Assembly (NCBI GenBank): GCA_003220265.1 | Contig: QHRW01000115.1 | Coordinates: 83,395-147,394 of the forward strand | DNA length: 64,000 nucleotides | DNA from: Candidatus Rokuibacteriota bacterium | GTDB taxonomy: Bacteria; Methylomirabilota; Methylomirabilia; Rokubacteriales; CSP1-6 | Reading direction: 5' to 3' | Shown: positions 9,647 to 64,000 of the stretch, in pieces | Numbering within the stretch: position 1 is the first letter of the stretch | How the letters are laid out: the number at the start of each line of letters is the position of its first letter | Notes under the pieces: model-generated | What the model was told of the DNA's origin: nothing | What the model saw: the letters and a program-made list of their open reading frames with translations, nothing else | The model's database searches: none | Translations under genes and position numbers: made by a program

Positions 9647-9769
9647 AATCCCCCCAACGTTCGGAGTGCCCCGGCAAAGCCGTGGCACTCCTCTGTATCA
9701 GCTGTATCAGCCCTTGCCGTTGTTGCGCTGGGCACAAGGCTCTGTTACCGTTTGGCCGCTGTTCGCGCC

Positions 9770-9920
9770 CGGGTCCCGAATTGGGCCCCAGGGAAGGCGG
9801 TGTGAATCCGCCGCGACCCCGTCACTGTAATCGGGGACGAAACCCGCGAGAGCCACTGGCCTAAGAGGCTGGGAAGGCGCGGGGAGTAGGACGATCCGAG
9901 AGCCAGGAGACCTGCTCGGG
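9770..9920 (+). promoter_or_regulatory. cobalamin riboswitch
   Basis: Core CAGGGAAGGCGGTGTGAATCCGCCGCGACCCCGTCACTGTAA, B12 box AGAGCCACTGG (9850-9860) and 3' GAGAGCCAGGAGACCTGC. Sits directly upstream of cobU. Confidence 0.85.
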
Positions 9921-9963
9921 CGCGCACTCTACGACCGGTCTTCGCGGGAGGATCCGGGGAACG

Positions 9964-14842: not shown

Positions 14843-15672
14843 ACGCGCTCGTCGAGTTCGCGTCCGTGGGCTTCACGTATCCGCAGCCCGAGCGCACGCG
14901 CGAGGGCGGCTTCACGCTGACGGACGTGTCGTTCGGCATCGCCGACGGCGAGGTGTTCGGCGTGATCGGGCCCAACAGCGCCGGCAAGACGACGCTGCTG
15001 CGGCTGCTGACGCGCGTCGTCCCCGCCGAGCGCGGCGAGATCCGGCTGGAAGGCCGGCCCATCGCGCGGCTGGCGCACGCCGAGCTGGCGCGCCGGGTGG
15101 CGGTGGTGCCGCAGGACGCGCCGCGGCCGTTTCCGTTCAGCGTCGAGCAGCTCGTGCTGATGGGACGCTACCCGCACGGCCCCGGCCGCTTCTTCGAGAG
15201 CGACGACGACCGCGCCCTGGCTCGTGCCGCGATGGCGGCCACCGGCGTGCTCGAGCTGGCCGCGCTGCCGCTCGAGCAGCTCTCCGGCGGCGAGCGCCAG
15301 CGCGCGATGCTGGCCCGCGCGCTCGCCCAAGAGCCGAAGCTCCTCGTGCTCGACGAGCCGACCTCGCACCTGGACCTCCGCTACCAGGCGGAGACGGCGG
15401 CGCTCATCCGGCGCGTCAACGCCGAGCGCGGCATGACGGTGCTGCTCGTCTCGCACGATCTGAACCTGGCCGCCGAGGTGTGCGACCGGCTGCTGCTGCT
15501 CTCGCGCGGCCGCGTGGCGCGCGTGGGCCCGCCGGCGGCGGTGCTGGAGCGCGACACGCTCGAAGCGGTGTTCGGCTGTGCCGTGTCCGTGGAGGTCAAT
15601 CCGGTGAGCGGCCGCCCCGTCGTGCAGGTCGCCTGGCCGCAGGAGGTGAAGCGCAGCAGTCTCGCTCGTTGA
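14839..15672 (+). CDS. ABC transporter ATP-binding protein (BtuD/FecE-like)
   Basis: Walker A GPNSAGKTT, signature LSGGERQR, Walker B LLVLDEPTSHLD. GTGA overlap with the permease. Confidence 0.85.
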   Translation: MNALVEFASVGFTYPQPERTREGGFTLTDVSFGIADGEVFGVIGPNSAGKTTLLRLLTRVVPAERGEIRLEGRPIARLAHAELARRVAVVPQDAPRPFPFSVEQLVLMGRYPHGPGRFFESDDDRALARAAMAATGVLELAALPLEQLSGGERQRAMLARALAQEPKLLVLDEPTSHLDLRYQAETAALIRRVNAERGMTVLLVSHDLNLAAEVCDRLLLLSRGRVARVGPPAAVLERDTLEAVFGCAVSVEVNPVSGRPVVQVAWPQEVKRSSLAR

Positions 15673-15674
15673 CA

Positions 15675-15845
15675 GCTCCGGGTGCGAGGGAAGCCGGTCG
15701 AAGCCGGCACGGTCGCGCCACTGTAAGTGGGGAGCGCCGTCCAGGTCCCGCGCGTGCGCGGGAGCCACTGTTTTCCGCAGGGGAACGGGAAGGCATGGAC
15801 GGGTCGCGTCGATCCACGAGTCAGGAAACCTGCCCGGAGCCCGAG
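15675..15845 (+). promoter_or_regulatory. cobalamin riboswitch (second copy)
   Basis: GAGGGAAGCCGGTCGAAGCCGGCACGGTCGCGCCACTGTAAG, GGAGCCACTG (15771-15780) and AGTCAGGAAACCTGCC. Sits directly upstream of the TonB-dependent receptor. Confidence 0.85.
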
Positions 15846-15880
15846 GTTCCAACCCTTTCGCGAGAGAAGGAGTGGAGCAG

Positions 15881-20041: not shown

Positions 20042-20823
20042 CGGCGCTCGTCCTCGCCGCCGCGCTGCTCCTGTTGCCGCTGGCGGCGCGGGCAGACGAC
20101 GAGAAGGACAAGGTCCAGCCCGACCGCTCGGGCGCCGCGACGTCCACCAGCACGGTCGGCGCCGGCGCCGTCCAGATCGAGGCGGGATTCAACTATGGCC
20201 ACGAGCGCAGCGGCGGCGCCCCGACCGAGAAGCGCTTCGGGCTCGAGGCGGCCGTGCGCATCGGTCTCACCGAGGCCTTCGAAGTCGGCTTCATGGGCGA
20301 GCCGCTGGTGCGATTGCGCAACGAGGTGGACGACACCGGCCACGGCGACTTCATGCTCGTCGCCAAGTACCGGTTCTTCGATCCGCCGCAAGGCTCACCG
20401 TGGCCGTCGCTGGCCGTTCTGCCGTTCGTGACGCTGCCGGTGACGGAGGAGCCGTTCGGCTCCGGCAAGACCGACTTCGGCGCGATCCTGCTCGCCAGCT
20501 TCGAGCTGCCGTGGCAGTTCAGCCTCGATCTGAACGCCGGCGTGGCGGCGATCGGGCAGAACCGACCCTCGGGCTATCTCGCGCAGGCCATCGTCCGCGG
20601 CGGCCTGTCGCGCGCCATCATCGAGAGCGTCACGCTGTTCACCGACCTGGTCTACACCTCGCGCGAGGAGCGCGAGGGCCGCGACACGGTCATCCTCGAC
20701 GCCGGCGTCATCTGGTGGCCGGCGCGCCGGGTGGCCCTCGATGCCTCGGTCGTGACGTCGCTGGCCGGCAACGCGCCCGACTGGACGGTCCGCGCCGGCG
20801 TCAGCGTCCGCTTCGGCCGTTGA
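20038..20823 (+). CDS. outer-membrane beta-barrel protein (MetA-pathway 'transporter'-like)
   Basis: Signal peptide MTALVLAAALLLLPLAARA, alternating beta-strand pattern, C-terminal VSVRFGR. Family call from memory. Confidence 0.6.
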   Translation: MTALVLAAALLLLPLAARADDEKDKVQPDRSGAATSTSTVGAGAVQIEAGFNYGHERSGGAPTEKRFGLEAAVRIGLTEAFEVGFMGEPLVRLRNEVDDTGHGDFMLVAKYRFFDPPQGSPWPSLAVLPFVTLPVTEEPFGSGKTDFGAILLASFELPWQFSLDLNAGVAAIGQNRPSGYLAQAIVRGGLSRAIIESVTLFTDLVYTSREEREGRDTVILDAGVIWWPARRVALDASVVTSLAGNAPDWTVRAGVSVRFGR

Positions 20824-22343
20824 GCGCCACGCCCTGCCTGATGCTGCAGGGCACGGGGTCGGGCGTGGGCAAGAGCCTGCTCGCGACGGCCTTCTGTCGC
20901 CTCTTCGCGCGCGCCGGCTATCGGGTGGCGCCATTCAAGGCGCAGAACATGTCGCTCAACGCGGCGGTGACCGCCGACGGCGGTGAGATCGGCCGCGCGC
21001 AGGCCGCGCAGGCGGCGGCGGCCGGCGTCGAGCCGACGGTGGACATGAATCCGATCCTCTTGAAGCCGGAGGGCGACGATCGCTCGCAGCTCGTGGTGCG
21101 CGGGCGGGCGCTCGATCGCGTGACATTTCGTGAGTACCGCGCCCGCCAGGCCGCCTTGAAGCCCGTCGTCGCCGAGTCCCTGGCGCGCGTGCGCGCGGCC
21201 GCCGACCTCGTCGTCATCGAGGGGGCCGGCAGTCCGGCCGAGATCAACCTGCGCGACGCCGACCTCGTCAACATGCACGTGGCGCGCATCGCCGGGGCGC
21301 CCGTGCTGCTGGTCGGCGACATCGATCGCGGCGGGGTCTTCGCGGCGCTCGTCGGGACGCTGGCGCTGCTGGAACCCGCGGACCGTGCGCGCGTGGCAGG
21401 CCTGGTGATCAACCGTTTTCGCGGCGACGCGTCCGTGCTGACGCCCGGGCTCGAGGAGCTGCGCGCGCTGACCGGCGTGCCGGTGCTGGGCGTCGTGCCG
21501 TGGATCGCCGACCGGCTCGTTCCGGCCGAGGACTCGCTCGATCTCGAGGAGATGCCGGCGATCTCCGGCGACGTCCTTGTCGACGTCGCGGTGGTGCGCC
21601 TGCCGCGCATCGCCAATTTCGACGACTTCGACTGGCTGGCCGCCGAGCCGGGCGTGCGCGTGCGCTGGGTGACGACACCCGCGGCGCTCGACGGCGCGGA
21701 TCTCGTCGTCCTCCCCGGCAGCAAGAGCACCGTCGCCGACCTCGCCTGGCTCCGCGCCCGTGAGCTGGCGGACGCGATCGTCGGCGCGGCGGCCGCGGGG
21801 CGCGCCGTGCTCGGCGTCTGCGGCGGCTACCAGATGCTCGGCCGCACGCTGCGCGATCCCGACGGCGTGGAATCGCCGGTGGCCGAGGCGCCCGGCCTCG
21901 GCCTGCTGCCGATCGAGACGACGTTTGTGCGCGAGAAGACGACGGTCCGGGTGCGCGTGCGGGCCACGGCACATTCCGGGCCGTTCGCCGAGGCGTCCGG
22001 CATCGTCGGCGACGCGTACGAGATCCACGCCGGCCTCACGCGTGTTCTCACGCCGGAGGGAACGCCGCCGTTCGCGATCGTCGAGCGGGGCGGCGCTCCG
22101 GCCGATGGGTTCGACGGCGCCATGGTCGGCGCGGTCGCCGGTACGTACCTGCACGGCGTGCTCGCCAGCGGCGCCGTGCGTCGCGCGCTGCTTCGCTGGC
22201 TGGCCGCGCGCGCCGGCCGCGCACCGCACCTGGAGTGGGGGAGCGCGGCGTCACGCGTGACGCGCTGGGATCGTCTCGCCGATATTGTCGCGGGCGCGCT
22301 GGACGTCAGGGCCGTCGGCAAGCTCGTCGGCCGTCCGCTCTGA
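20820..22343 (+). CDS. cobQ: cobyric acid synthase
   Basis: GTGSGVGKS and FKAQNMSLNA, with a C-terminal GATase (GVCGGYQMLG). Start is TTG 20820 (TTGA overlap) or ATG 20841. Confidence 0.9.
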   Translation: MSATPCLMLQGTGSGVGKSLLATAFCRLFARAGYRVAPFKAQNMSLNAAVTADGGEIGRAQAAQAAAAGVEPTVDMNPILLKPEGDDRSQLVVRGRALDRVTFREYRARQAALKPVVAESLARVRAAADLVVIEGAGSPAEINLRDADLVNMHVARIAGAPVLLVGDIDRGGVFAALVGTLALLEPADRARVAGLVINRFRGDASVLTPGLEELRALTGVPVLGVVPWIADRLVPAEDSLDLEEMPAISGDVLVDVAVVRLPRIANFDDFDWLAAEPGVRVRWVTTPAALDGADLVVLPGSKSTVADLAWLRARELADAIVGAAAAGRAVLGVCGGYQMLGRTLRDPDGVESPVAEAPGLGLLPIETTFVREKTTVRVRVRATAHSGPFAEASGIVGDAYEIHAGLTRVLTPEGTPPFAIVERGGAPADGFDGAMVGAVAGTYLHGVLASGAVRRALLRWLAARAGRAPHLEWGSAASRVTRWDRLADIVAGALDVRAVGKLVGRPL

Positions 22344-22349
22344 GGGCTG

Positions 22350-23270
22350 GTGTCGCCGGCGCTCCACGCCGTCGGGGTCGTGCTGCTCGCGGTCGCCATC
22401 GACCTGGCCTTCGGGGATCCGCCCGATCGCTGGCACCCGGTCGCGTGGATCGGCCGCGCACTGTCGGCCGGGCGCGAGCGGCTCTGCGATGGTTCGCCGA
22501 CCGTGCTCTTCGTTTCGGGAGGCGCGCTGACGCTGGGCGTGATCGCGCTGGCCGCGCTGGCGGGTGGCCTCGTCGCACTGCTGGGGCACACGCTCGGCGT
22601 GGCCGGCGTGGTGGTCGAGGCCGCCGCGCTCAAATCGACCCTCGCGCTGCGCGACCTCGCGCGGGCCGCGCGCGGCGTGTCCACCGCGCTCGCCGCACAT
22701 GACCTCGCCGGCGCTCGCACGCAGCTCGGCTTCCACCTGGTGAGCCGTCCGACGGCCGCGCTGGACGCAAGCCAGGTGGCCTCGGGTGCGATCGAGTCGA
22801 TGGCCGAAAACCTCACCGACGCTTTCGTCGCGCCGCTGCTCTTCTATCTCGTCCTCGGCCTCCCGGGCGCGCTCGCCTATCGCGCGCTCAACACCGCCGA
22901 CACCATGCTCGGCTATCACGACGGCCCGCTCGAGTACTTCGGCAAGCTCGCCGCTAAACTCGACGACCTCGCGAATCTCATCCCCGCGCCGCTCGCCGCC
23001 GTCGCCATCGTCGCAGCCGCCGGCAATGCGGCTCGCGCCGCGTGGTGGGCGATGATCCGCGACCACGATCGCACCGCCAGCCCCAACGCCGGCTGGACCA
23101 TGTCCGCCACCGCCGGCGCCCTCGACCTCACGCTGGAGAAGCCCGGCGCCTACCGACTGGGCCACGGCCGCCCCCCAACCGCGTCCGACATCGACCAGTC
23201 GATTCGCCTCATCGCTACCGCCTCCGTGATCTTCCTGGCCGTGGTCATGCTAATACGACTGATCATCTAA
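22350..23270 (+). CDS. cbiB: adenosylcobinamide-phosphate synthase
   Basis: Polytopic protein with DPPDRWHPVAWIG, NTADTMLGY and SPNAGW motifs. Confidence 0.9.
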   Translation: MSPALHAVGVVLLAVAIDLAFGDPPDRWHPVAWIGRALSAGRERLCDGSPTVLFVSGGALTLGVIALAALAGGLVALLGHTLGVAGVVVEAAALKSTLALRDLARAARGVSTALAAHDLAGARTQLGFHLVSRPTAALDASQVASGAIESMAENLTDAFVAPLLFYLVLGLPGALAYRALNTADTMLGYHDGPLEYFGKLAAKLDDLANLIPAPLAAVAIVAAAGNAARAAWWAMIRDHDRTASPNAGWTMSATAGALDLTLEKPGAYRLGHGRPPTASDIDQSIRLIATASVIFLAVVMLIRLII

Positions 23271-23400
23271 TTAGTTTGAAACAACAGTTATTTAATAAAG
23301 ATCATCTGAGACTCGAAGCGAGCTTCCCTCGCTGTATGCGCCCGTGCCGACAGGCCGACGGCAGAACGGCGTCCGAGGCACACTCACACCACGCGGCAGT

Positions 23401-23553
23401 GGCGCGGGCCGCCGTGGCGGGGCCGCGGGGGTCCGCCGACCCGTTCCCGCTAACGTCGGCACGCGCGACGGTGGAAAGGAATCGCGTCAAACGATCTTCG
23501 CTCCGCGCTCGTGGTCGCCGGACCCCCGCGGCCCCGGCGCGGCGGCCCGCGCC
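23401..23553. repeat. 153-bp palindromic (MITE/REP-like) element, copy A
   Basis: 40-bp GC-rich arms GGCGCGGGCCGCCGTGGCGGGGCCGCGGGGGTCCGCCGAC (23401-23440) and GTCGCCGGACCCCCGCGGCCCCGGCGCGGCGGCCCGCGCC (23514-23553) are near-perfect reverse complements. The core is alignable with copy B at 28979-29133 in the opposite orientation. Confidence 0.8.
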
Positions 23554-23729
23554 ACGCCCGCCGCGCTGAGCAGTGTGCGTCTGAAGCGTGCGCGCCGCGA
23601 CGATGAACGAGCGGGCTCGTGACGAGTGCGGCACGATGCAGAGACAGCGCAGGTTTTTCTTGTGATGACTGCTGGAAGCGAGCCGTATGATGAGGCGGAT
23701 TCGCCGCCACCGTGCGGCGTTCTGTGTCT

Positions 23730-26682: not shown

Positions 26683-28500
26683 ATGAATCAGGTTTACAAA
26701 AACCTTGCCCTGTTCATGGTGATCGGCCTCATCGTCATCCTGCTCTTCACCGTGTTCAGCACCTCCCAGCAGGGCGGCCAGGAATCGCCGAACTTCTCGG
26801 AATTCCTGCGCCATGTCGAGCTGGGCCGGGTAGAGTCGGTGACCATCCGGGACAAGCTGGTGACCTACACGCTGAAGGACGGCGGCCAGCCGATGCGCAC
26901 CTTCATCGTGGACTACCCCGACCTCATCAAGATGCTGCGCGAGCGCGGCGTCCGGATCGCGGTGAAGCCGCCGGACTCGAACCCCTGGTACACGATCGTG
27001 CTCCAGTGGTTCCCGATGCTGCTCTTCATCGGAGTCTGGATCTTCTTCATGCGCCAGATGCAGGGCGGCGGCGCCAAGGCCCTGAGTTTCGGAAAAGCAA
27101 GAGCACGTCTGATTTCGGAGAAACAAAACAAGATCACGTTCCAGGACGTCGCGGGTGTCGACGAGGCCAAGGAAGAGCTCCGCGAAATCATCGACTTCCT
27201 GAAAGATCCTCAGAAGTTCCAGAAGCTCGGCGGCAAGATCCCCAAGGGCGTGCTGCTAGTCGGCCCTCCCGGAACCGGGAAGACGCTTCTCGCAAAGGCG
27301 ATTGCGGGTGAAGCAAACGTTCCGTTCTTTTCGATTTCAGGGTCCGACTTCGTCGAGATGTTCGTGGGCGTCGGGGCGTCCCGCGTGCGCGACCTCTTCG
27401 AGCAAGGCAAGAAGCACGCCCCTTGTATCATCTTCATGGACGAGATCGACGCGGTCGGCCGGCATCGCGGCGCCGGTCTGGGCGGCGGCCACGACGAACG
27501 CGAGCAGACGCTGAACCAGCTCCTCGTCGAGATGGACGGCTTCGAGACCAACGAAGGCGTCATCCTGATCGCGGCGACGAACCGTCCGGACGTGCTCGAC
27601 CCGGCACTGCTCAGACCGGGACGATTCGATCGACAGGTCGTCGTGCCGAGACCAGACGTCAAGGGACGCGAAGAAATCTTGCGTGTGCACGCGCGCCGCA
27701 TCCCGCTGGCCCCTAATGTCGATCTCAAGGTGCTGGCGCGCGGCACGCCCGGGTTCTCTGGCGCGGATCTCGCCAACCTCGTCAACGAGGCGGCGCTGCT
27801 GGCGGCGCGGCAGAACAAGAAACTCGTCGAGATGCTCGACTTCGAGAACGCCAAGGACAAGGTCCTCATGGGCGTCGAGCGGCGCTCGATGATCATCTCC
27901 GACACCGAGAAGCGCACGATCGCCTATCACGAGGCGGGCCATGCCCTGGTTGCCGACTTTCTGCCGGGCGCCGACCCGCTGCACAAGGTGACGATCATCC
28001 CGCGCGGGCGCGCGCTCGGGCTCACCATGCAGCTGCCGATGGACGACAAGTACAACTACTCGCGCGAGTACCTGATCAACCGGATCACGATCCTGCTCGG
28101 CGGCCGCTCCGCGGAGGAGATCGTCCTCAAGCAGCAGACGACCGGTGCCGGCGACGACCTGGAGAAGGCCACCGAGATGGCCCGCAAGATGGTCTGCGAG
28201 TGGGGCATGTCGGACAAGCTGGGACCGCTCACCTTCGGCAAGAACGAGGAGCACATCTTCCTCGGTCGCGAGGTGGCGCGGGCCAAGGACTACAGCGAAG
28301 AGACCGCCCAGGCGATCGACGTCGAGATCAAGCGGCTCATCGTCGACTGCGCGACGCGGGCGCGCCAGATCCTCGAGGAGAACATCGAGAAGCTCCACGC
28401 CCTCGCGCGGGCCCTGCTGGAGCGTGAGTCCCTCGACTCCGAGGAGATTGCCCGGATCCTGCGCGCGCAGCCGTTCCAGGAAGCGCCAGCCCCGGCCTGA
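26683..28500 (+). CDS. ftsH: ATP-dependent zinc metalloprotease FtsH
   Basis: Two N-terminal TMs, Walker [12 protein letters not shown] region, zinc motif HEAGHA. Confidence 0.97.
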
Positions 28501-28534
28501 TCAGCAGGGGCCTGGCCGGCCTCTGTCATACGGT

Positions 28535-29524
28535 ATGCCTCAGTTCCGAGCGGACCTCGCAGGAGTCTCGGTGGGTGACGGCCTTCCGGTGGCTGTCATG
28601 GGCGTGATCAACGTGAGCCCGGAGTCCTTCCATGCCGGTTCCGTCCGCCGCCTGGACGATGTGCTCGCCACGGCGCAGGCCATGGTCGATGCCGGCGCCG
28701 CCCTGATCGACGTGGGGGCGCGCTCGACGGCGCCGTACCTGCCGACCGAGATCACGGAGTCCGAGGAAACTGCGCGCCTCGTGCCCGCCGTCGAGCTCCT
28801 TGCCGCCAAGCTCTCCGTGCCGGTCTCCGCGGACACCGCGCGGCCCGAGCCGGTCCGCGCCGCGCTCGAAGCCGGCGCGCGCGTGATCAACGACGTCTCC
28901 ACGCTGCGTGATCCCGCCGTCGCGCGACTCGTCGCCTCTCACGCCGTCTCGCTCATCCTCATGGCCGCGCCGACGGTCGGCGCGGGCCACCGCGGCGGGG
29001 CGGCGGGGGTCCGGCGACCACGAGCCCGGAACGTAGGCCGGTTGCCGCAAGGCCTTCAATCCGTGGCGCGTGCCAGCGTTGGGAGGGGAACGGGTCGGCG
29101 GACCCCCGCCGCCCCGCCACGGCGGCCCGCGCCAGCCCCCGGGGTGACCATCAGGAAGATTTTGGCGGAGGGGTTGCGACGGGCGCGCTCGGCGGGGATC
29201 TCACAATCCAGGATTGTCGTGGATCCGGGGATCGGGTTCTTCCGCGCCGAGCACCTCACCTGGGACGAGTGGGACGCGCGGGTGCTGGCGGGGCTCGCCT
29301 CGCTTCGCTCGCTCGCCAGGCCGATCTGTGTCGGTGTTTCGCGGAAGTCCTTTATCGGGGCGATCCTCGAGCGGCCGGAGACGGGCGATCGGCTTGCGGG
29401 GTCGATTGGGGCGACGGCGATTGCCGTTGTGAATGGGGCGGCGGTGATCAGGGCTCACGACGTCCGGGAGACGTGCGATGCGGTGCGGGTGGCGGAGCGC
29501 ATCCGACGGGTAGGGGCGCGATGA
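28535..29524 (+). CDS. folP: dihydropteroate synthase carrying an in-frame ~52-aa insertion
   Basis: VMGVINVSPESF, IDVGARST, INDVS and DPGIGF motifs, all in one frame. Residues encoded by ~28979-29133 are an Arg/Gly/Pro-rich segment specified by palindromic element copy B. Confidence 0.85.
   Translation: MPQFRADLAGVSVGDGLPVAVMGVINVSPESFHAGSVRRLDDVLATAQAMVDAGAALIDVGARSTAPYLPTEITESEETARLVPAVELLAAKLSVPVSADTARPEPVRAALEAGARVINDVSTLRDPAVARLVASHAVSLILMAAPTVGAGHRGGAAGVRRPRARNVGRLPQGLQSVARASVGRGTGRRTPAAPPRRPAPAPGVTIRKILAEGLRRARSAGISQSRIVVDPGIGFFRAEHLTWDEWDARVLAGLASLRSLARPICVGVSRKSFIGAILERPETGDRLAGSIGATAIAVVNGAAVIRAHDVRETCDAVRVAERIRRVGAR
28979..29133. repeat. 155-bp palindromic (MITE/REP-like) element, copy B, inside the folP reading frame
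   Basis: Arms GGCGCGGGCCACCGCGGCGGGGCGGCGGGGGTCCGGCGAC (28979-29018) and GTCGGCGGACCCCCGCCGCCCCGCCACGGCGGCCCGCGCC (29094-29133). The reverse complement aligns with copy A, including core blocks CCGTTCCC, GGCACGCGC and GCTCGTG. Confidence 0.8.
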
Positions 29525-51499: not shown

Positions 51500-52939
51500 A
51501 TGACCGGGATGTCCGGCTACCTTCGCACGCTGTTCCTGCATCCGCCCTCGTTCGAAGGGTTCGACGGCGGGGCCGGCAGCCGCTACCAGGCCCGCCGCGA
51601 GGTGCGCTCCTTCTGGTATCCGACCTGGCTCGCCCAGCCGGCGGCGCTCGTGCCGGGCTCACGCCTGATCGACGCGCCCCCGGCCGACCTCTCGCTGGGC
51701 GACGTCGTGCCGCTGGCCCGCGACTACGACCTGGCCGTTCTGCACACGAGCGCGCCGTCCTTCGCGCACGACGTGAAGGTGGCCGAGGCGCTGCGCGAGG
51801 CGAATCCGAAGATCCGCGTCGGCTTCGTGGGCGCCCACGTGGCCGTGGCGCGCGAGACGGCGCTCGAGGCCTCGCCGGCGATCGAGTTCGTGACGGGCAA
51901 CGAGTTCGACTTCACCATCCAGGAGATCGCGCAGGGCCGGCCCATCGACCGGGTGACGGGCGTCTCGTATCGCACGAACGGCCACGTGCACCGCACGCCC
52001 GAGCGCGCGCCCCTCGAGGACATGGACCGGCTGCCCTACGTGGTCGACGTCTACAAGCGCGACCTCGACGTGGAGCGTTACTTCATCGGTTACCTGCTGC
52101 ATCCCTACCTGTCGCTCTACACGGGCCGCGGCTGCCGCTCGAAGTGCACGTTCTGCCTGTGGCCGCAGACGGTGGGCGGCCAGCGGTACCGCACGCGCTC
52201 GGTGGACAACGTGGTGGCGGAGATCGAGCGGGCCACGCGGCTCTTTCCGCAGGTCAAGGAGTACTTCTTCGACGACGACACCTTCACCGACGACTTGCCG
52301 CGCGCCGAGGCGATCGCGCGCGGGCTGGGCCGGCTGGGCGTCACGTGGTCGTGCAACGCCAAGGCCGACGTGCCCTACGCCACGCTGAAGATCCTCAAGG
52401 ACAACGGGCTGCGCCTGCTGCTGGTCGGCTACGAGTCGGGTAGCCAGGCCATCCTCAACAACGTCAAGAAGGGCATCCGCCTCGATCGCGCGCGCGAGTT
52501 CACCCGCCACGCCAAGGCGCTCGGCATCACCATCCACGGCACGTTCGTCATGGGCCTGCCGGGCGAGACGCGCGAGACCATCGAGGCCACCATCAAGTTC
52601 GCGCTCGAGATCGATCCGCACACGATCCAGGTCTCGCTGGCGGCGCCGTATCCCGGCACCGCGCTCTACCGCGAGGCGCAGGCGCGCGGCTGGCTGGAAA
52701 CCGAGTCGCTGGTGGACGCCGGCGGCGTGCAGACCAGCGTGCTCGGCTACCCGCACCTCGGCCGCACCGAGATCTTCGCCTCGCTCGAGCAGTTCTACCG
52801 CCGCTTCTACTTCCGCCCGCGCAAGATCTTCGCCATCGGCGCCGAGATGCTCCGCGACCGCGCGGTGCTGCGGCGCCGCCTCGGCGAGGGCGCGGACTTT
52901 CTGCGCTTCCTGGCGCGCCGGCGCCGAGAACGTCATTGA
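51500..52939 (+). CDS. B12-binding radical SAM protein, HpnJ-like
   Basis: 479 aa. LFLHPPSFEGFDGGAGSRYQARREVRSFWYPTWLAQPAAL and CRSKCTFC (CX3CX2C). The N-terminal signature matches my memory of the HpnJ (TIGR03471-type) family. Confidence 0.8.
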   Translation: MTGMSGYLRTLFLHPPSFEGFDGGAGSRYQARREVRSFWYPTWLAQPAALVPGSRLIDAPPADLSLGDVVPLARDYDLAVLHTSAPSFAHDVKVAEALREANPKIRVGFVGAHVAVARETALEASPAIEFVTGNEFDFTIQEIAQGRPIDRVTGVSYRTNGHVHRTPERAPLEDMDRLPYVVDVYKRDLDVERYFIGYLLHPYLSLYTGRGCRSKCTFCLWPQTVGGQRYRTRSVDNVVAEIERATRLFPQVKEYFFDDDTFTDDLPRAEAIARGLGRLGVTWSCNAKADVPYATLKILKDNGLRLLLVGYESGSQAILNNVKKGIRLDRAREFTRHAKALGITIHGTFVMGLPGETRETIEATIKFALEIDPHTIQVSLAAPYPGTALYREAQARGWLETESLVDAGGVQTSVLGYPHLGRTEIFASLEQFYRRFYFRPRKIFAIGAEMLRDRAVLRRRLGEGADFLRFLARRRRERH

Positions 52940-52950
52940 GGGAGACGGTC

Positions 52951-53997
52951 GTGAGCTCGTCTCGTCCCATCGTCGCCATCGCTGCGCTCATCGCGCTGCT
53001 CGCGGGCGCCTGCGCGGCGCCGCGGCCGGCGCCGCCGCGTCCGGCCGCGCTCGCCGCCAGCCTGCGCGGCCATCATCACTCGGTCACCAGCCTGGTGCTC
53101 TCGCCCGACGGCGGCCGGCTGATCTCCGGCAGCCGCGACGGCCGGCTGCGTCTGTGGAACACCGCCACCGACACGCCGGAGGCGACGCTGTCACCCAACT
53201 GGTGGCCCTCGAGCATGTGGACCGTGGCGGTGTCGCCCGATGGCGCGCTCGTCGCCGGGGGCGCGGACGACTTCCTCGTGCACATCTGGGACGTCAAGAC
53301 GCGAAAGCTCCGCGTGGTCCTCGAGGGCCACACGCAGTCGATCCGCGTGCTCGGCTGGAGCTCCGACGGCCGCCTCTTCGCGTCCGGCGGGCGGGACACG
53401 ACGGTGCGGCTCTGGGACACGGCCACGTGGAAGGAGATCGCGCGGCTCCCCCATCTCAACACCGTGCGAGGCCTGGCGTGGGCGCCGGACGGCGCGCGCC
53501 TGTTCAGTGGCACCGCGGACGACGTGATCTACGCGTGGGAGGTGCGCAGCGGCACGCTCCTGGCCACGCTGCGCGGCCACCGCAACACCGTGCACGCGCT
53601 CGCCATCACGCCGGACGGCCGCACCCTCGTGTCCGGCGCCGCCGATCAGACGCTGCGCCTGTGGAGCCTGGCCGCGAGCACGTCGAGCAACGTCCTGTCA
53701 CTCGACCGCAGCGACGAGCCGCCGACGCGCTGGGAGAGCTACGGCATCCACCCGGGGCCCGAGGTGATGGCAGTCGCGGCCAGCCCCGACGGCCACCTCG
53801 TCGCCTCCGCGCACCGCGACTCGGCCATTCGCCTGTGGTCGCTGCCGAGCGGGCACGAGCTCACGCGGCTGCCGTCGCCGGCGGCTACGACGTACGCGGT
53901 CGTCTTCTCGCGCGATGGACGCTACCTCTACTCCGGCGGGGATGACGACGCGATCCATCGCTGGGACCTCGCGCGCGTCCTCTCCGTCGCGCGCTAA
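52951..53997 (+). CDS. WD40-repeat protein with signal/lipoprotein-like N-terminus
   Basis: GAGGGAG RBS before GTG 52951 (TTG 52936 is the alternative). Repeated ...GH...V..L..SPDG..L.SG..D..LRLW modules. Confidence 0.85.
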   Translation: MSSSRPIVAIAALIALLAGACAAPRPAPPRPAALAASLRGHHHSVTSLVLSPDGGRLISGSRDGRLRLWNTATDTPEATLSPNWWPSSMWTVAVSPDGALVAGGADDFLVHIWDVKTRKLRVVLEGHTQSIRVLGWSSDGRLFASGGRDTTVRLWDTATWKEIARLPHLNTVRGLAWAPDGARLFSGTADDVIYAWEVRSGTLLATLRGHRNTVHALAITPDGRTLVSGAADQTLRLWSLAASTSSNVLSLDRSDEPPTRWESYGIHPGPEVMAVAASPDGHLVASAHRDSAIRLWSLPSGHELTRLPSPAATTYAVVFSRDGRYLYSGGDDDAIHRWDLARVLSVAR

Positions 53998-53999
53998 CG

Positions 54000-54229
54000 C
54001 TTCTGAGAATTCGCGGCGCGTACGCGATCGCCGCGTGAGGCGGCCGGGCCGAGGCTGGGTCTGACGACCACGTGGTGGCCGCCCGCATCGACGTCGCTCG
54101 GCTGGATTCCATCGACGCGGTGCGCCCGGTCTGGCGCGGGCTCGACGCCGGCGGGGAACGGGTTGCTCAGACCCAGCCCCGGCCCGGCCACCTCACGCTG
54201 CGTGGCGTATGGGCCGCAATTCTTAGAAG
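54000..54229. repeat. 230-bp imperfect palindrome filling the convergent intergenic gap
   Basis: The left arm (54000-54064, CTTCTGAGAATTCGCGG...GGCTGGGTCTGA) is ~80% complementary to the right arm (54167-54229, TCAGACCCAGCC...GCAATTCTTAGAAG). It lies between stops at 53995-53997 and 54231-54233. Confidence 0.75.
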
Positions 54230-54230
54230 C

Positions 54231-54920
54231 CTACGTTCGGGGAGTCAGGAGGTCCGTCACCGTGCTCAGTGCATAGCCCTGGGTGCGTAGGCCGTTGATC
54301 ATTGGGGGTAGGGCTTCGACCAATCTTTGAGGGGCTTGCTTCGTTCCCTCGGCATCATGCAAGTCGATGATGGCGCCGGGGTGGGCGCGGTGGAGGACGT
54401 AGGTTACTTGCTGGTCGGCTGGAGTGGGGCGTTGGCCTTCGGGTTGGATCGACCAGAAGACGCAGCGTTCGCCGGCTTTGTGGACGGCGGAGAACATCGC
54501 GGCGTTGACCATGCCCCACGGCGGTCGGAACAGACGCGGCGGCGTGCCGGTGATCTCGGCGATCGTGTCGTGGGTGCGACGGATCTGTTCGGTGGTGGTG
54601 CGGGGGCCGCAGAACCAGAGGTTGGGGTGGGACCAGGAGTGGTTGGCGAGCTCGTGACCCTCGGCGGCGATGCGCTTCACGACGGCGGCGGCGCGGGCGG
54701 CGCGCTCGCCGATGAGGAAGAACGTGGCGTGGACGCCGGCGGCAGCGAGGAGGTCGAGGACGCGGGGCGTCCACTCGGGGTCGGGGCCGTCGTCGAAGGT
54801 GAGCGCGACGTGGCGGCGCGCGCGAGGGCCGCGCCAGGTGCAGGTGGGCGTCGCCAGGTGAGGGAGCCAGGCCCAGCCGATCCAGGCGGCGGCGCCGAGG
54901 GCGAGGGCGCCGGCGATCAC
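54231..54920 (-). CDS. polysaccharide deacetylase (CE4) with N-terminal TM
   Basis: GTG 54920 (GTGA overlap with the upstream stop). NodB motifs ALTFDDGPD, HELANHSWSH and LFRPPWG. Confidence 0.8.
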   Translation of the reverse strand: MIAGALALGAAAWIGWAWLPHLATPTCTWRGPRARRHVALTFDDGPDPEWTPRVLDLLAAAGVHATFFLIGERAARAAAVVKRIAAEGHELANHSWSHPNLWFCGPRTTTEQIRRTHDTIAEITGTPPRLFRPPWGMVNAAMFSAVHKAGERCVFWSIQPEGQRPTPADQQVTYVLHRAHPGAIIDLHDAEGTKQAPQRLVEALPPMINGLRTQGYALSTVTDLLTPRT

Positions 54921-56032
54921 GCGCGCTGCCGGGCGCCGGCGACGACCTCGTCGACGATGCGGCGCGTGGCGTCGGGCCGGCGCAGGTGGCGCATGCGCGC
55001 GCGCAGGTGCTCGAGCAGCTCGGGCTCGGCGAGCGCGCGCTCGAGCAGCCGGCCGAGATCGCGGGGCGAGCGCGCGGCCAGCGCGATGCCCGCGCGCGCG
55101 GCGAACCGTTCGTTGCGGTGCTCCTGGCCGGGCAGCGAGCCGTAGAGCAGCAGCGGGATCTCGGCGGCCAGCGCCTCGGCCAGCGTCATGCCACCGGCCT
55201 TGGTGACGAGCACGTCGGCGGCGGCCATCAGCGTGCGCACGTCGTCGACATACCCCAGCACGCGGATCGACGGGCCGGCGACGAGACGGCGCAGCCGCTC
55301 GGCGAAGGCGGCGTCGTGACCCGCCACGACCACGGCCTGGATCGGCGCGGGCAGTCGGCCGAGCGCGCGGACGATCTCCGGCAGGCGGCCGATGCTGCCG
55401 TGCGAGCCGGCCATCGCCAGCACGACGGGAAAGTCCCGATGCAGGCCGAGCGCGGCCCGAGCGGCCGCGGGGTCGATCGTACGCTCGAACTCGGCGCGGA
55501 TGGGCACACCCGTCACGCGCACGCGCTCGCGCGCGATGCCGCGGGCCACGAACTCGTGGCCGACCTCCTCGGCCGCCACGCAGTAGCGGTCGATGCCGCG
55601 GGCGATCCACTGGCTGTGGGCGACGAAGTCCGTGACCACCGTGGTGTGCGGCGGCAGCCGCCGGCCGTCGGCCGCCAGCGCCGACATCGCCACGGCGGGC
55701 GTGGCGTGCACGGACACCACCGCGTCCGGCCGCAGCTCGTCCAGCAGGGCGGCGAGCCGCGACGAGCCCACGCGCGTCATGCCGAACGTGAAGGCGGACT
55801 CGCTCGACATCCAGTCGCCGAGCGCGTAGGCCGCGCCCCACGCGGCCGGCACGTGCTTGAGCAACGCCATGTAGAGCCTGCGCGTCGTCGGCTCGAAGAG
55901 CGGGTGCGCCAGCTCGCGGAAGTGATCGACGACCGTCACGCCGACTCCGCGCGCGGCGAAGCCCGCGGCCAGGCTACGCGCGGCCTCGTTGTGGCCGGAG
56001 CCGTAGCTGGCGGTGAGGATGAGGACGTGCAT
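54917..56032 (-). CDS. MGDG-synthase/MurG-like (GT28) glycosyltransferase
   Basis: MHVLILTASYGSGHNEAARSL (MGDG_synth N-domain) and a C-terminal VLVTKAGGMTLAEALA...PGQE. Confidence 0.8.
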   Translation of the reverse strand: MHVLILTASYGSGHNEAARSLAAGFAARGVGVTVVDHFRELAHPLFEPTTRRLYMALLKHVPAAWGAAYALGDWMSSESAFTFGMTRVGSSRLAALLDELRPDAVVSVHATPAVAMSALAADGRRLPPHTTVVTDFVAHSQWIARGIDRYCVAAEEVGHEFVARGIARERVRVTGVPIRAEFERTIDPAAARAALGLHRDFPVVLAMAGSHGSIGRLPEIVRALGRLPAPIQAVVVAGHDAAFAERLRRLVAGPSIRVLGYVDDVRTLMAAADVLVTKAGGMTLAEALAAEIPLLLYGSLPGQEHRNERFAARAGIALAARSPRDLGRLLERALAEPELLEHLRARMRHLRRPDATRRIVDEVVAGARQRA

Positions 56033-63402: not shown

Positions 63403-64000
63403 GGTCGGGCGCCCACTGCCAGGCGAGCACCCGCGCGATGGGTCCATCGATCGCCAGCGCCGCCGCGTAGCCTGGGCCGGCGTCGAGGTCGCGCAGCGTC
63501 CAGCGTGCCGGGTCGTCGTCGGCGGCGGCCAGTAGCGTGGGCGCCGCGGGATCGGTGGAGACGGTGAACTCCTCGAACGGCAGGGCCAGTCCCAGCCCGC
63601 GCGCCTTGGCGTAGGCTTCCTTTCGCGTCCATACCGCGAAGAACGCGCGCTCGCGCGCGGGGGGCGCGAGCGCGCGCAGCGCCGTCACCTCGGCCGGCGA
63701 CAGCACGCGGCCGGCCACCACGTCTTCCACCACGCCGCGCATCATGCGCTCGACGTCCACGCCGATGTCGCGGCCGATCGCCACCGCGCAGAGCGCCAGG
63801 CCGGCCGAGCGCGACACGCTGAAGTGCAGGGCGCCGGCCAGCGCGCCGATCAGCGCCGGGCGGCCTTCGGGCGTGCGGCCGAGCGTGACGGCGCCGGGCT
63901 CGACGTCGAGGTAGCGCGCCAGGACCGAGCGGAGCGCCACGCGGCCGAGCGTGAAGCGACGGCGATCGGGCGGGAACACGAAGCTCGCGGCGCGTGCGCG
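63389..64000 (-). CDS. Sfp-type 4'-phosphopantetheinyl transferase, N-terminus beyond window
   Basis: IGVDVERM and WTRKEAYAKA motifs. The ORF continues past nt 64000 (the upstream ...ARAASFVFPPDRRRF is still in frame). Confidence 0.8.
   Translation of the reverse strand, partial: RARAASFVFPPDRRRFTLGRVALRSVLARYLDVEPGAVTLGRTPEGRPALIGALAGALHFSVSRSAGLALCAVAIGRDIGVDVERMMRGVVEDVVAGRVLSPAEVTALRALAPPARERAFFAVWTRKEAYAKARGLGLALPFEEFTVSTDPAAPTLLAAADDDPARWTLRDLDAGPGYAAALAIDGPIARVLAWQWAPDLSSR

Follow-up and report, generated by a model that had tools for sequence, protein, structure and literature searches.

An in-frame hairpin segment in a Rokubacteria folP gene as a probable member of a dispersed family of nested-hairpin DNA repeats

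How does the gene for an essential enzyme come to carry a long GC-rich palindrome in the middle of its reading frame? This question is raised by folP, the gene for dihydropteroate synthase (DHPS), in a 64,000-nucleotide stretch (hereafter the window) of contig QHRW01000115.1 from a Candidatus Rokuibacteriota bacterium. A sequence-only reading of the locus had claimed that a palindromic element occupies positions 28979-29133 and that it is repetitive DNA rather than native folP sequence. The coordinates were confirmed and the sequence is as described. The second part of the claim also holds, because the element recurs in non-coding copies, in an unrelated gene for an ABC-F ATPase and in several reading frames, and because it is cleanly missing from a close folP allele. 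In our judgment, the folP segment is probably an old, still-translated copy of a hairpin DNA repeat that resembles repetitive extragenic palindromes (REPs), REP doublets forming hairpins (REPINs) and Rickettsia palindromic elements (RPEs), and that persists as a passenger in translation.

The earlier description of this copy (copy A) as an inverted repeat around a core is borne out by two arms (28953-29019 and 29093-29159) that are 82% complementary and 73 nt apart. Pairing is best between 28975-29019 and 29093-29137, which together form approximately 45 bp, and the outer arms contribute 27 Watson-Crick pairs, one G:U pair and three mismatches over 31 positions. The stem proved as stable as had been supposed, with a minimum free energy of -135 kcal/mol for the RNA fold (z = -7.4 relative to dinucleotide shuffles) and -76.8 kcal/mol for the DNA fold (z = -6.2). 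The open reading frame (ORF) that spans the structure, 28145-29524, is uninterrupted, the translation quoted previously is exact, and folP probably starts inside this stop-free ORF, with the ATG at 28535. The protein P0006, encoded at locus L001, is 97% identical to the window FolP outside the insert but lacks the insert cleanly. Its DNA reads ...ATGGCCGCGCC|GGCCCCCGGGG... at the point where the window has 162 extra bases. The boundary of the insert carries a 1-nt ambiguity relative to this empty allele, with direct GCGCC on both flanks. Furthermore, the flank AGCCCCCGGGGTG is similar to the T/CCCCCGTGG tail found behind many other copies, and it is present in the empty allele too.

The Pterin_bind match (Pfam PF00809, 1e-48) covers FolP residues 22-308, and all pterin- and para-aminobenzoate-site residues on the catalytic face are invariant on either side of the insert among 38 orthologues, which argues that folP encodes a working DHPS. 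Comparison with solved DHPS structures yields two aligned blocks, in which query residue 143 corresponds to E. coli residue 140 and query residue 206 to E. coli residue 162, such that the window FolP has 62 residues where the E. coli enzyme has 21. An AlphaFold model returns a confident triosephosphate isomerase (TIM) barrel with predicted local distance difference test (pLDDT) values above 90, and puts the insert after strand 5 (139-143) and ahead of helix 5 (202-220). Residues 150-190 have pLDDT values of 30-39, and residues 144-201 lack secondary structure. This model thus places the insert as a predicted disordered loop between beta5 and alpha5, on the catalytic face of the barrel; in Rokubacteria FolPs that lack the insert, the loop at this place is very short. 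The folP stop overlaps the start of cdaA (ATGA, 29521-29524). The gene order ftsH-folP-cdaA-ybbR-glmM-acpS is kept in relatives, and locus L174 is without cdaA and ybbR between folP and glmM.

The window contains other copies of the same DNA. The sequence-only reading had pointed to a second copy in the opposite orientation, and blastn finds this copy B at 23400-23553 with 84% identity over 156 nt (E = 6e-44). A 42-nt arm pattern matches the window three times, with zero matches expected. A covariance model built from family copies and applied to the whole window recovers copies A and B as well as a diverged copy C, and nothing else in the 64 kb at E < 0.1 (Table 1). The inner stem of copy C, GGGTCTGACGACC/GGTTGCTCAGACCC, differs by compensatory substitutions and carries a bulge at the canonical mismatch position. 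Copy C begins 31 nt past the stop (53997) of a co-oriented plus-strand gene (52936-53997). A convergent gene (54231-55841) ends 29 nt beyond it, and the flanks of copy C add an extra inverted repeat, GAGAATTCGCGGC / GCCGCAATTCT.

Table 1. Coordinates of the hairpin repeats, their parts and the host gene in the window
Feature	Position	Strand	Description or basis
folP (dihydropteroate synthase), host gene	28535..29524	+	329 aa; ORF list, Pfam PF00809 1e-48, DHPS structures in the PDB match on either side of the insert
Insert absent from empty allele L001	28972..29133	+	162 nt, 54 codons; DNA alignment of window and L001
Copy A, outer 5' arm	28975..29005	+	G-rich; sequence particular to locus and lineage
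Copy A, conserved inner 5' arm GGGGTCCGGCGACC	29006..29019	+	Encodes GVRRP; nearly invariant in 67 aligned copies; a mini-palindrome by itself (GGTC-CGGC-GACC)
Copy A, core	29020..29092	+	73 nt; ACGAG at 5' end, CCTTC in the middle, GTTGGGAGGGGAACG at 3' end
Copy A, conserved inner 3' arm GGTCGGCGGACCCC	29093..29106	+	Encodes GRRTP; G.G mismatch with 29014
Copy A, outer 3' arm	29107..29137	+	C-rich; arm pairing and fold
3' flank AGCCCCCGGGGTG	29134..29146	+	Codons for PAPGV; flank consensus, empty allele
Covariance model match, copy A	28982-29130	+	113 bits
Copy B, full element, cobD-argS spacer	23399..23555	-	Antisense to both flanking genes; blastn 84% to copy A
Covariance model match, copy B	23404-23550	-	105 bits
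Copy C, diverged member	54029..54202	+	First seen as inverted repeat; covariance model 39.8 bits
Covariance model match, copy C	54033-54198	+	39.8 bits, E = 4e-7

Copy B occupies the same site in three relatives whose CobD proteins are 99, 90 and 89% identical to that of the window, and two of these carry an 11-nt arm deletion. No empty site and no fresh insertion junction were found for copy B in the three close relatives examined. Judged by this comparison, copy B is old and orthologously conserved, and the similarity between copies A and B is thus not evidence of recent transposition.

Beyond the window, the family is far more extensive. A scan of one genome per species, which demanded both inner arms separated by 55-85 nt, returned 45 full elements at 43 loci, all in metagenome-assembled genomes (MAGs) of Methylomirabilota/Rokubacteria, and as many as 7 in a single MAG. 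Metagenomes scanned with one arm yielded at least 120 loci, and more than 100 copies lie in other Rokubacteria contigs outside the window. We consider it likely that these copies constitute a previously undescribed family of interspersed nested-hairpin DNA repeats of approximately 150-170 bp, found here only in Methylomirabilota/Rokubacteria. Our search of the literature found no description of such repeats in Rokubacteria.

Each copy is built from two inverted REP-like units, GGGGTCCGSCGACC / GGTCGSCGGACCCC, that form a conserved inner 14-bp stem, usually with a G.G mismatch at the S position. Because the inner arms are each small palindromes (GGTC-CGGC-GACC and GGGTC-GGCG-GACCC), the element resembles a doublet of REP-like units. 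These arms are 71-83 nt apart in 129 elements, and the core between them has conserved motifs, namely ACGAG at the 5' side, a central CCAUAC or CCUUC block, and GUUGGGAG[G/U]GAAACG at the 3' side. When a copy is oriented by ACGAG, its 5' arm is G-rich and its 3' arm is C-rich, and the GC content of the element is approximately 80% (approximately 72% for the window). Outside the inner stem lies an outer stem of 23-33 bp that is complementary within each copy but unrelated in sequence between copies, even in one genome; random arm identity is 46%. Aside from copies A and B, only borderline pairs of paralogous copies sharing outer arms were found. The 40-bp inverted repeat of the earlier description is therefore correct with regard to paired arms, but these are not classical conserved terminal repeats, and only the inner 14 bp are conserved. 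Truncated and half copies also exist.

Several individual arrangements should be recorded. The MAG CAVUPM01 (L004, L011, L030, L034 and L043) holds six copies with a longer core type of 82-83 nt and unrelated outer stems, and the site orthologous to one of these long-core copies has the short core type in other genomes; this suggests that copies within a genome evolve in concert or undergo gene conversion. Element pairs at L035:4630-5042 and L122:4406-4763 lie 200-300 nt apart in opposite orientation, and a pair at L034:409-1964 brackets a single ORF. At L044:5986-6013, an outer arm is replaced by a run of more than 25 C/G at the contig end, a probable error of assembly or sequencing at the hairpin.

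The variable outer stems bear on the question of whether the hairpin is maintained as RNA or as DNA. Among 48 elements, the 1093 outer pairs comprise 1033 Watson-Crick pairs, 13 G:U pairs and 47 mismatches. In an alignment of 67 copies, 91.8% of cells are paired, versus 40-49% when the partners are slid, and there are 496 double-sided changes versus 166 in shuffles, with none of 500 shuffles reaching the observed number. All 24 outer pairs covary, and the terminal helix pair changes from G-C to A-U in 7 of 7 cases. Nevertheless, G:U pairs (13) are rarer than A.C mismatches (27), with no G:U excess on the sense strand, which fits unbiased transitions in a DNA palindrome and not selection for an RNA helix. 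Within the core, no conserved or covarying helix was found by RNAalifold on MAFFT alignments, a column-pair scan, averaged base-pair probabilities or a duplex test, the last of which compared native with cross-sequence duplex energies for 28 region pairs. A new family of structured non-coding RNA was rejected because no core helix was found to covary and G:U pairs are not tolerated. Hammerhead, hepatitis delta virus (HDV)-like, kink-turn and tRNA-like cores were considered by eye and dropped. Rfam 15, searched over the whole window at the gathering threshold, gave no match at the element, and a search of the locus at E values up to 10 gave only chance-level microRNA matches.

A process acting on DNA might explain how the arms stay paired. 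One mismatch in a 40-bp GC helix has little stability cost, and template switching in quasi-palindromes is established in E. coli genetics. Differences between folP arms are mostly matched on the partner arm, as in 13 of 15 differences between L002 and L138. Because a mismatch costs so little, the near-perfect symmetry of arms that have diverged by approximately 30% between orthologues would reflect arm-to-arm correction of DNA. We infer from these comparisons that the arms may be kept complementary by a DNA-level process such as template switching or gene conversion.

In-frame folP copies occur in the window and in L002, L048, L116 and L138, with diverged versions in L047 and L174. A second host gene encodes an ABC-F ATPase (L037:5815-7551, L069:4142-6187 and, on the minus strand, L074) with the domains ABC_tran (twice), ABC_tran_Xtn and ABC_tran_CTD, and the element there separates the second ABC domain from the C-terminal coiled coil. 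The analogy to RPEs drawn in the sequence-only reading is thus sound, in that in-frame copies exist in both folP and the unrelated ABC-F ATPase gene. The ABC-F copies are read in a frame other than that used in folP (GSGDHGAGLRDTGGR...), and in P0048-type FolPs a third frame (GAPSTT) is used for the left half and the canonical one for the right half. Thus, three frames of the same DNA are represented (GVRRP..GRRTP, GSGDH..GSADP and GAPSTT..). The non-coding copies have no multiple-of-3 bias in element length (36/38/43). Because the frames differ and this length bias is lacking, the conserved entity is the DNA and not the peptide, a conclusion shown by sequence comparison.

An alignment with orthologues had been proposed as a check on whether the insert is unique to this lineage, and the outcome is that it is neither recent nor lineage-unique. 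The FolP homologues all come from Methylomirabilota/Rokubacteria metagenomes. Among the 118 closest FolPs, the loop running from the strand-5 motif to DPGIGF ranges continuously from 32 to 98 residues, with 51 full inserts, 63 partial remnants and 4 essentially empty alleles. With the insert masked, a neighbour-joining tree was built, on which Fitch parsimony assigns 'present' to the root and four independent complete losses, each nested among full copies, and P0006 adjoins the window sequence. By this reconstruction, the insert is shown to be ancestral to all 118 orthologues compared, with repeated loss since and decay in many. Intermediate states can be seen. The folP copy at L046:3415-3494 (FolP P0067) is a perfect hairpin of approximately 40 bp whose core is cut to a 4-nt loop, still in frame (GVRRPRGRRTP). 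Genetic instability is expected of long perfect palindromes with a short loop. L049 has lost the right arm and its decayed remnant remains in frame, and L047 and L174 have diverged inner stems that the covariance model still scores (39 and 25 bits). An apparent inversion of the core in P0011-type FolPs was dismissed, as the DNA has the same orientation with a diverged inner stem.

These alleles also bear on two explanations centered on the FolP product. One takes the segment for a native loop of FolP, specific to the lineage and selected at the protein level, or else for an assembly chimera. The insert is indeed widespread in Rokubacteria FolPs, but the same DNA occurs at non-coding sites and in another gene, the loop is predicted to be disordered, its length is continuous, its sequence is unconserved and its frames differ. 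Likewise, a chimera, which we had been alerted to check for, is at odds with the recovery of the same junctions by independent assemblers from independent data sources, the identical in-frame insert being present in dozens of independently assembled FolP genes (JGI, ENA, NCBI and Logan). We regard this explanation as exceedingly improbable. The other is that the segment is an intervening sequence, whereby RNA excision at the long helix and ligation would yield mature FolP without the 54 residues. A helix of approximately 45 bp would bring the exon ends together and would be a natural endonuclease substrate, and a peptide unconserved in frame and sequence is what such a segment might encode. 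However, all inserts recorded in folP (at least 51 full and 63 partial) and in ABC-F genes (three) are in frame and stop-free, the non-coding copies show no corresponding length bias, and the L049 remnant is in frame even though it is incapable of forming the helix. To our knowledge, no such splicing system exists in bacteria, and we find this scenario very unlikely.

Most members of the family reside outside of coding regions, and they do so with a characteristic placement. Coding calls based on GC content at third codon positions were made around 117 unique elements. In 77 of the 106 copies with enough upstream sequence, the stop of a co-oriented gene falls -5 to +55 nt before the hairpin, at a median distance of approximately 7 nt and with many at 0-5 nt, whereas the stop of a convergent gene is near the other side in only 7 of 103 copies. 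The normal home of the family is therefore the first few nucleotides past the stop codon of a co-oriented gene, and copy B, antisense to both cobD and argS, is exceptional. Several sites are orthologous across genomes, with arms that have diverged yet are still complementary. Consensus in the flanks is weak (..CC|GGGCG...CGCCC|TCCCC..); tails such as TCCCCCGTGGCC occur, and there is no U-tract behind the hairpin. An intrinsic (Rho-independent) terminator was considered and rejected because the U-tract is lacking, the loop on the approximately 40-bp stem exceeds 70 nt, and a terminator scan called nothing at the elements. We also rejected the idea that terminator hairpins already in place had received the insertions, as only one naked hairpin exists in the window and the empty folP allele has no outer arms. 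That hairpin, an isolated 33-nt GC palindrome at 63644-63676 (CGCGCGCTCGCGCGCGGGGGGCGCGAGCGCGCG), is the sole short-loop hairpin in the window with approximately 14 paired bases.

It is possible, though not probable, that the element is instead a functional cis-acting RNA whose hairpin is bound or cut by a specific factor (e.g., RNase III or a double-stranded RNA-binding protein), and that it sets mRNA 3' ends or couples translation termination. Under this explanation, the folP copy would be retained to split or attenuate expression of the ftsH-folP-cdaA-ybbR-glmM operon. The strict sense orientation close behind stop codons speaks for such a role, as do the long orthologous conservation at several sites (including folP and the cobD-argS spacer), the near-invariant inner stem whose mismatch or bulge position is kept even in diverged copies, the conserved core motifs including a GGAG(G) purine block, and the extreme stability of the fold. 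In opposition are the stems without G:U tolerance and the core without covariation, the antisense position of copy B, the TCCCC tail, and the many folP lineages in which the element has been deleted or degraded while the gene was kept.

Another explanation is that the family is an ordinary miniature inverted-repeat transposable element (MITE), a non-autonomous derivative of an insertion sequence (IS) that is moved by an end-recognising transposase and that landed in frame in folP by chance. A dispersed, multi-copy element of approximately 155 bp with inverted arms has the general appearance of a MITE, truncated and half copies are known, and the six long-core copies in one MAG are of a type not seen at the orthologous site elsewhere. 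We nonetheless deem this quite unlikely, because the outer (terminal) arms are unconserved between copies even within a genome, no consistent target-site duplication is evident, no copies with a long coding centre and no gene-flanking unit pairs were found in 1.09 Mb of flanking DNA, and the copies are orthologously stable with no insertion polymorphism seen. Among 165 right-arm matches, taken from fragments around the elements, no IS that could be a parent with shared ends turned up.

Comparison with known repeats places the preferred interpretation, a translated DNA repeat, in context. RPEs are dispersed palindromic repeats of approximately 100-150 bp that are found in intergenic regions and in frame in unrelated housekeeping genes, where they are translated and compatible with the protein fold (PMC10969869). 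The Rokubacteria element is likewise a dispersed palindromic repeat with many copies (three in 64 kb, 45 in genome loci and at least 120 metagenome loci), its copies in folP and the ABC-F ATPase gene are in frame and non-disrupting, and the FolP insert is a disordered surface loop. It differs in residing in an unrelated phylum, in a GC content of approximately 80% compared with AT-rich Rickettsia, and in the two host genes seen rather than dozens. A conserved peptide is described for RPEs, whereas the Rokubacteria element has none and is read in three or more frames. A variable, covarying outer stem and strong placement after stop codons are not known as RPE features. Homology to RPE-1 through RPE-10 would be implausible given the GC content and the unrelated phylum. 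By analogy, the Rokubacteria element would seem a likely second, independent example of the in-frame behaviour of palindromic elements that is known from Rickettsia.

REPs and REPINs are mostly extragenic, number tens of copies per genome, persist vertically at orthologous sites and often lie near stop codons. E. coli REPs within approximately 15 nt of a stop reportedly stall terminating ribosomes and stabilise the upstream mRNA. The Rokubacteria element, which likewise lies mostly outside genes, persists at orthologous sites and is often close to a stop, shares with REPINs two short, imperfect-palindrome units in inverted arrangement, which are separated by a spacer of approximately 70 nt and form one long hairpin. 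However, no GTAG or CGTC tag adjoins the unit; ACGAG and GAAACG lie inside and variable sequence outside. The extra 23-33-bp locus-specific outer stem has no REPIN counterpart, and in-frame coding copies are atypical of REPINs. Unit pairs enclosing a gene, as in the arrangement of REP-associated tyrosine transposases (RAYTs), were not found in the 1.09 Mb of DNA flanking elements.

Integron attC sites provide another point of reference, being imperfect palindromes of 60-140 bp that lie directly past an ORF stop in fixed orientation, with conserved unpaired stem bases and with structure conserved over sequence. The fixed orientation past stop codons (77/106 co-oriented, median approximately 7 nt) is similar. 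Yet the base of the Rokubacteria element (CC|GGGCG...CGCCC|TCCCC) has no RYYYAAC/GTTRRRY core sites, the inner part of the stem is conserved rather than the base, and the copies stand singly among syntenic housekeeping genes (cobD/argS and ftsH-folP-cdaA) rather than in cassette arrays beside an integrase. Finally, ERIC (enterobacterial repetitive intergenic consensus), Correia (CREE) and other MITE-like repeats are imperfect palindromes of approximately 100-160 bp that are co-transcribed and sometimes form intragenic in-frame fusions (PMC10969869). Their terminal repeats are conserved and target duplications are common (TA for Correia), but the Rokubacteria element shows neither. Unlike those of classical MITEs, its flanks are complementary and not direct repeats, with only the GCGCC microhomology in folP.

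If the folP segment is a translated passenger, its history could be as follows. Before any of the sampled Rokubacteria FolPs had diverged from one another, a copy would have become lodged in the coding sequence of folP and come to sit in the beta5-alpha5 loop, open in frame by chance. The insert would then have been translated as a disordered loop rich in Gly, Arg, Pro and Ala that the enzyme tolerates. Arm-to-arm template switching or gene conversion would hold the outer arms complementary, and constraint or conversion among copies would keep the inner module uniform. Loss of the insert might occur by partial or precise deletion between short direct repeats. For typical copies, the transcribed hairpin perhaps acts as a REP-like structure at the 3' end, with candidate roles as an exonuclease barrier, a terminator without a U-tract, or a modulator of translation termination.

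Several points weigh against regarding the element as a mobile passenger. No transposase, target-site duplication or conserved terminal repeats were found in the copies and their flanking DNA, and no recent insertion has been caught, with copies A and B both being old. The case for mobility comes down to dispersal and to insertion into two conserved genes, just as translation of the FolP insert is deduced from the open frame and the conserved downstream half. In addition, the invariant inner module, the retained G.G mismatch, the fixed orientation and the tight spacing from stop codons suggest a selected function and a specific binding partner, and the passenger idea leaves all four unexplained. 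That so stable a hairpin (-135 kcal/mol) has lasted in an essential gene throughout a clade may indicate some usefulness of the folP copy in its own right.

With these points in mind, one can speculate further that the hairpins are a host-maintained module, recognised by a putative dedicated Rokubacteria protein as folded single-stranded DNA or as double-stranded RNA, and installed past stop codons, where they would set mRNA 3' ends or termination. We hold this to be conceivable but doubtful. If true, the folP and ABC-F copies might be retained intragenic regulators, such as a ribosome-dependent switch that decouples ftsH/folP from cdaA-glmM, and the symmetric, locus-specific outer stems might reflect a new mechanism that homogenises or generates palindromes.

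Returning to the interpretation of the folP segment as a translated repeat, we note that in-frame translated palindromic repeats have so far been regarded as essentially a peculiarity of Rickettsia, and that the present case would extend them to a free-living, GC-rich and uncultured soil phylum. The host protein is an essential drug-target enzyme, and the insert has persisted through the diversification of the whole clade. The natural alleles (full, core-less perfect hairpin, decayed, precisely lost and frame-shifted) offer a ready series for studying how a protein absorbs selfish DNA, and also how palindromes survive in genomes. The architecture and the placement after stop codons point to an uncharacterised mechanism, whether of repeat installation or of mRNA 3'-end control in Rokubacteria. 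On a practical level, the elements will be a source of error in Rokubacteria MAGs for gene callers, protein family alignments and RNA-motif screens.

Some observations were also made in the vicinity of copy B. A 60-nt AT-rich stretch (23250-23310) lies right behind the cobD stop within this 72% GC genome, carries a sigma-70-like TTGAAA-N18-GATCAT and is itself kept in relatives (L170-L172). This stretch, which adjoins copy B, may be the argS promoter region. Farther along, the argS leader at 23590-23700 (CGTGACGAGTGCGGCACGATGCAG...GGTTTTT...CTGCTGGAAGCGAGCCGTATGATGAGGCG) hardly varies among relatives with 89-99% CobD identity, with variable spacer around it. It has no Rfam match and could be a regulatory leader. 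The cob gene region on the other side includes cobQ (20400-22343) and cobD (22350-23270), and cobalamin riboswitches lie upstream of it at 9754-9933 and 15663-15851 (111 and 71 bits, respectively).

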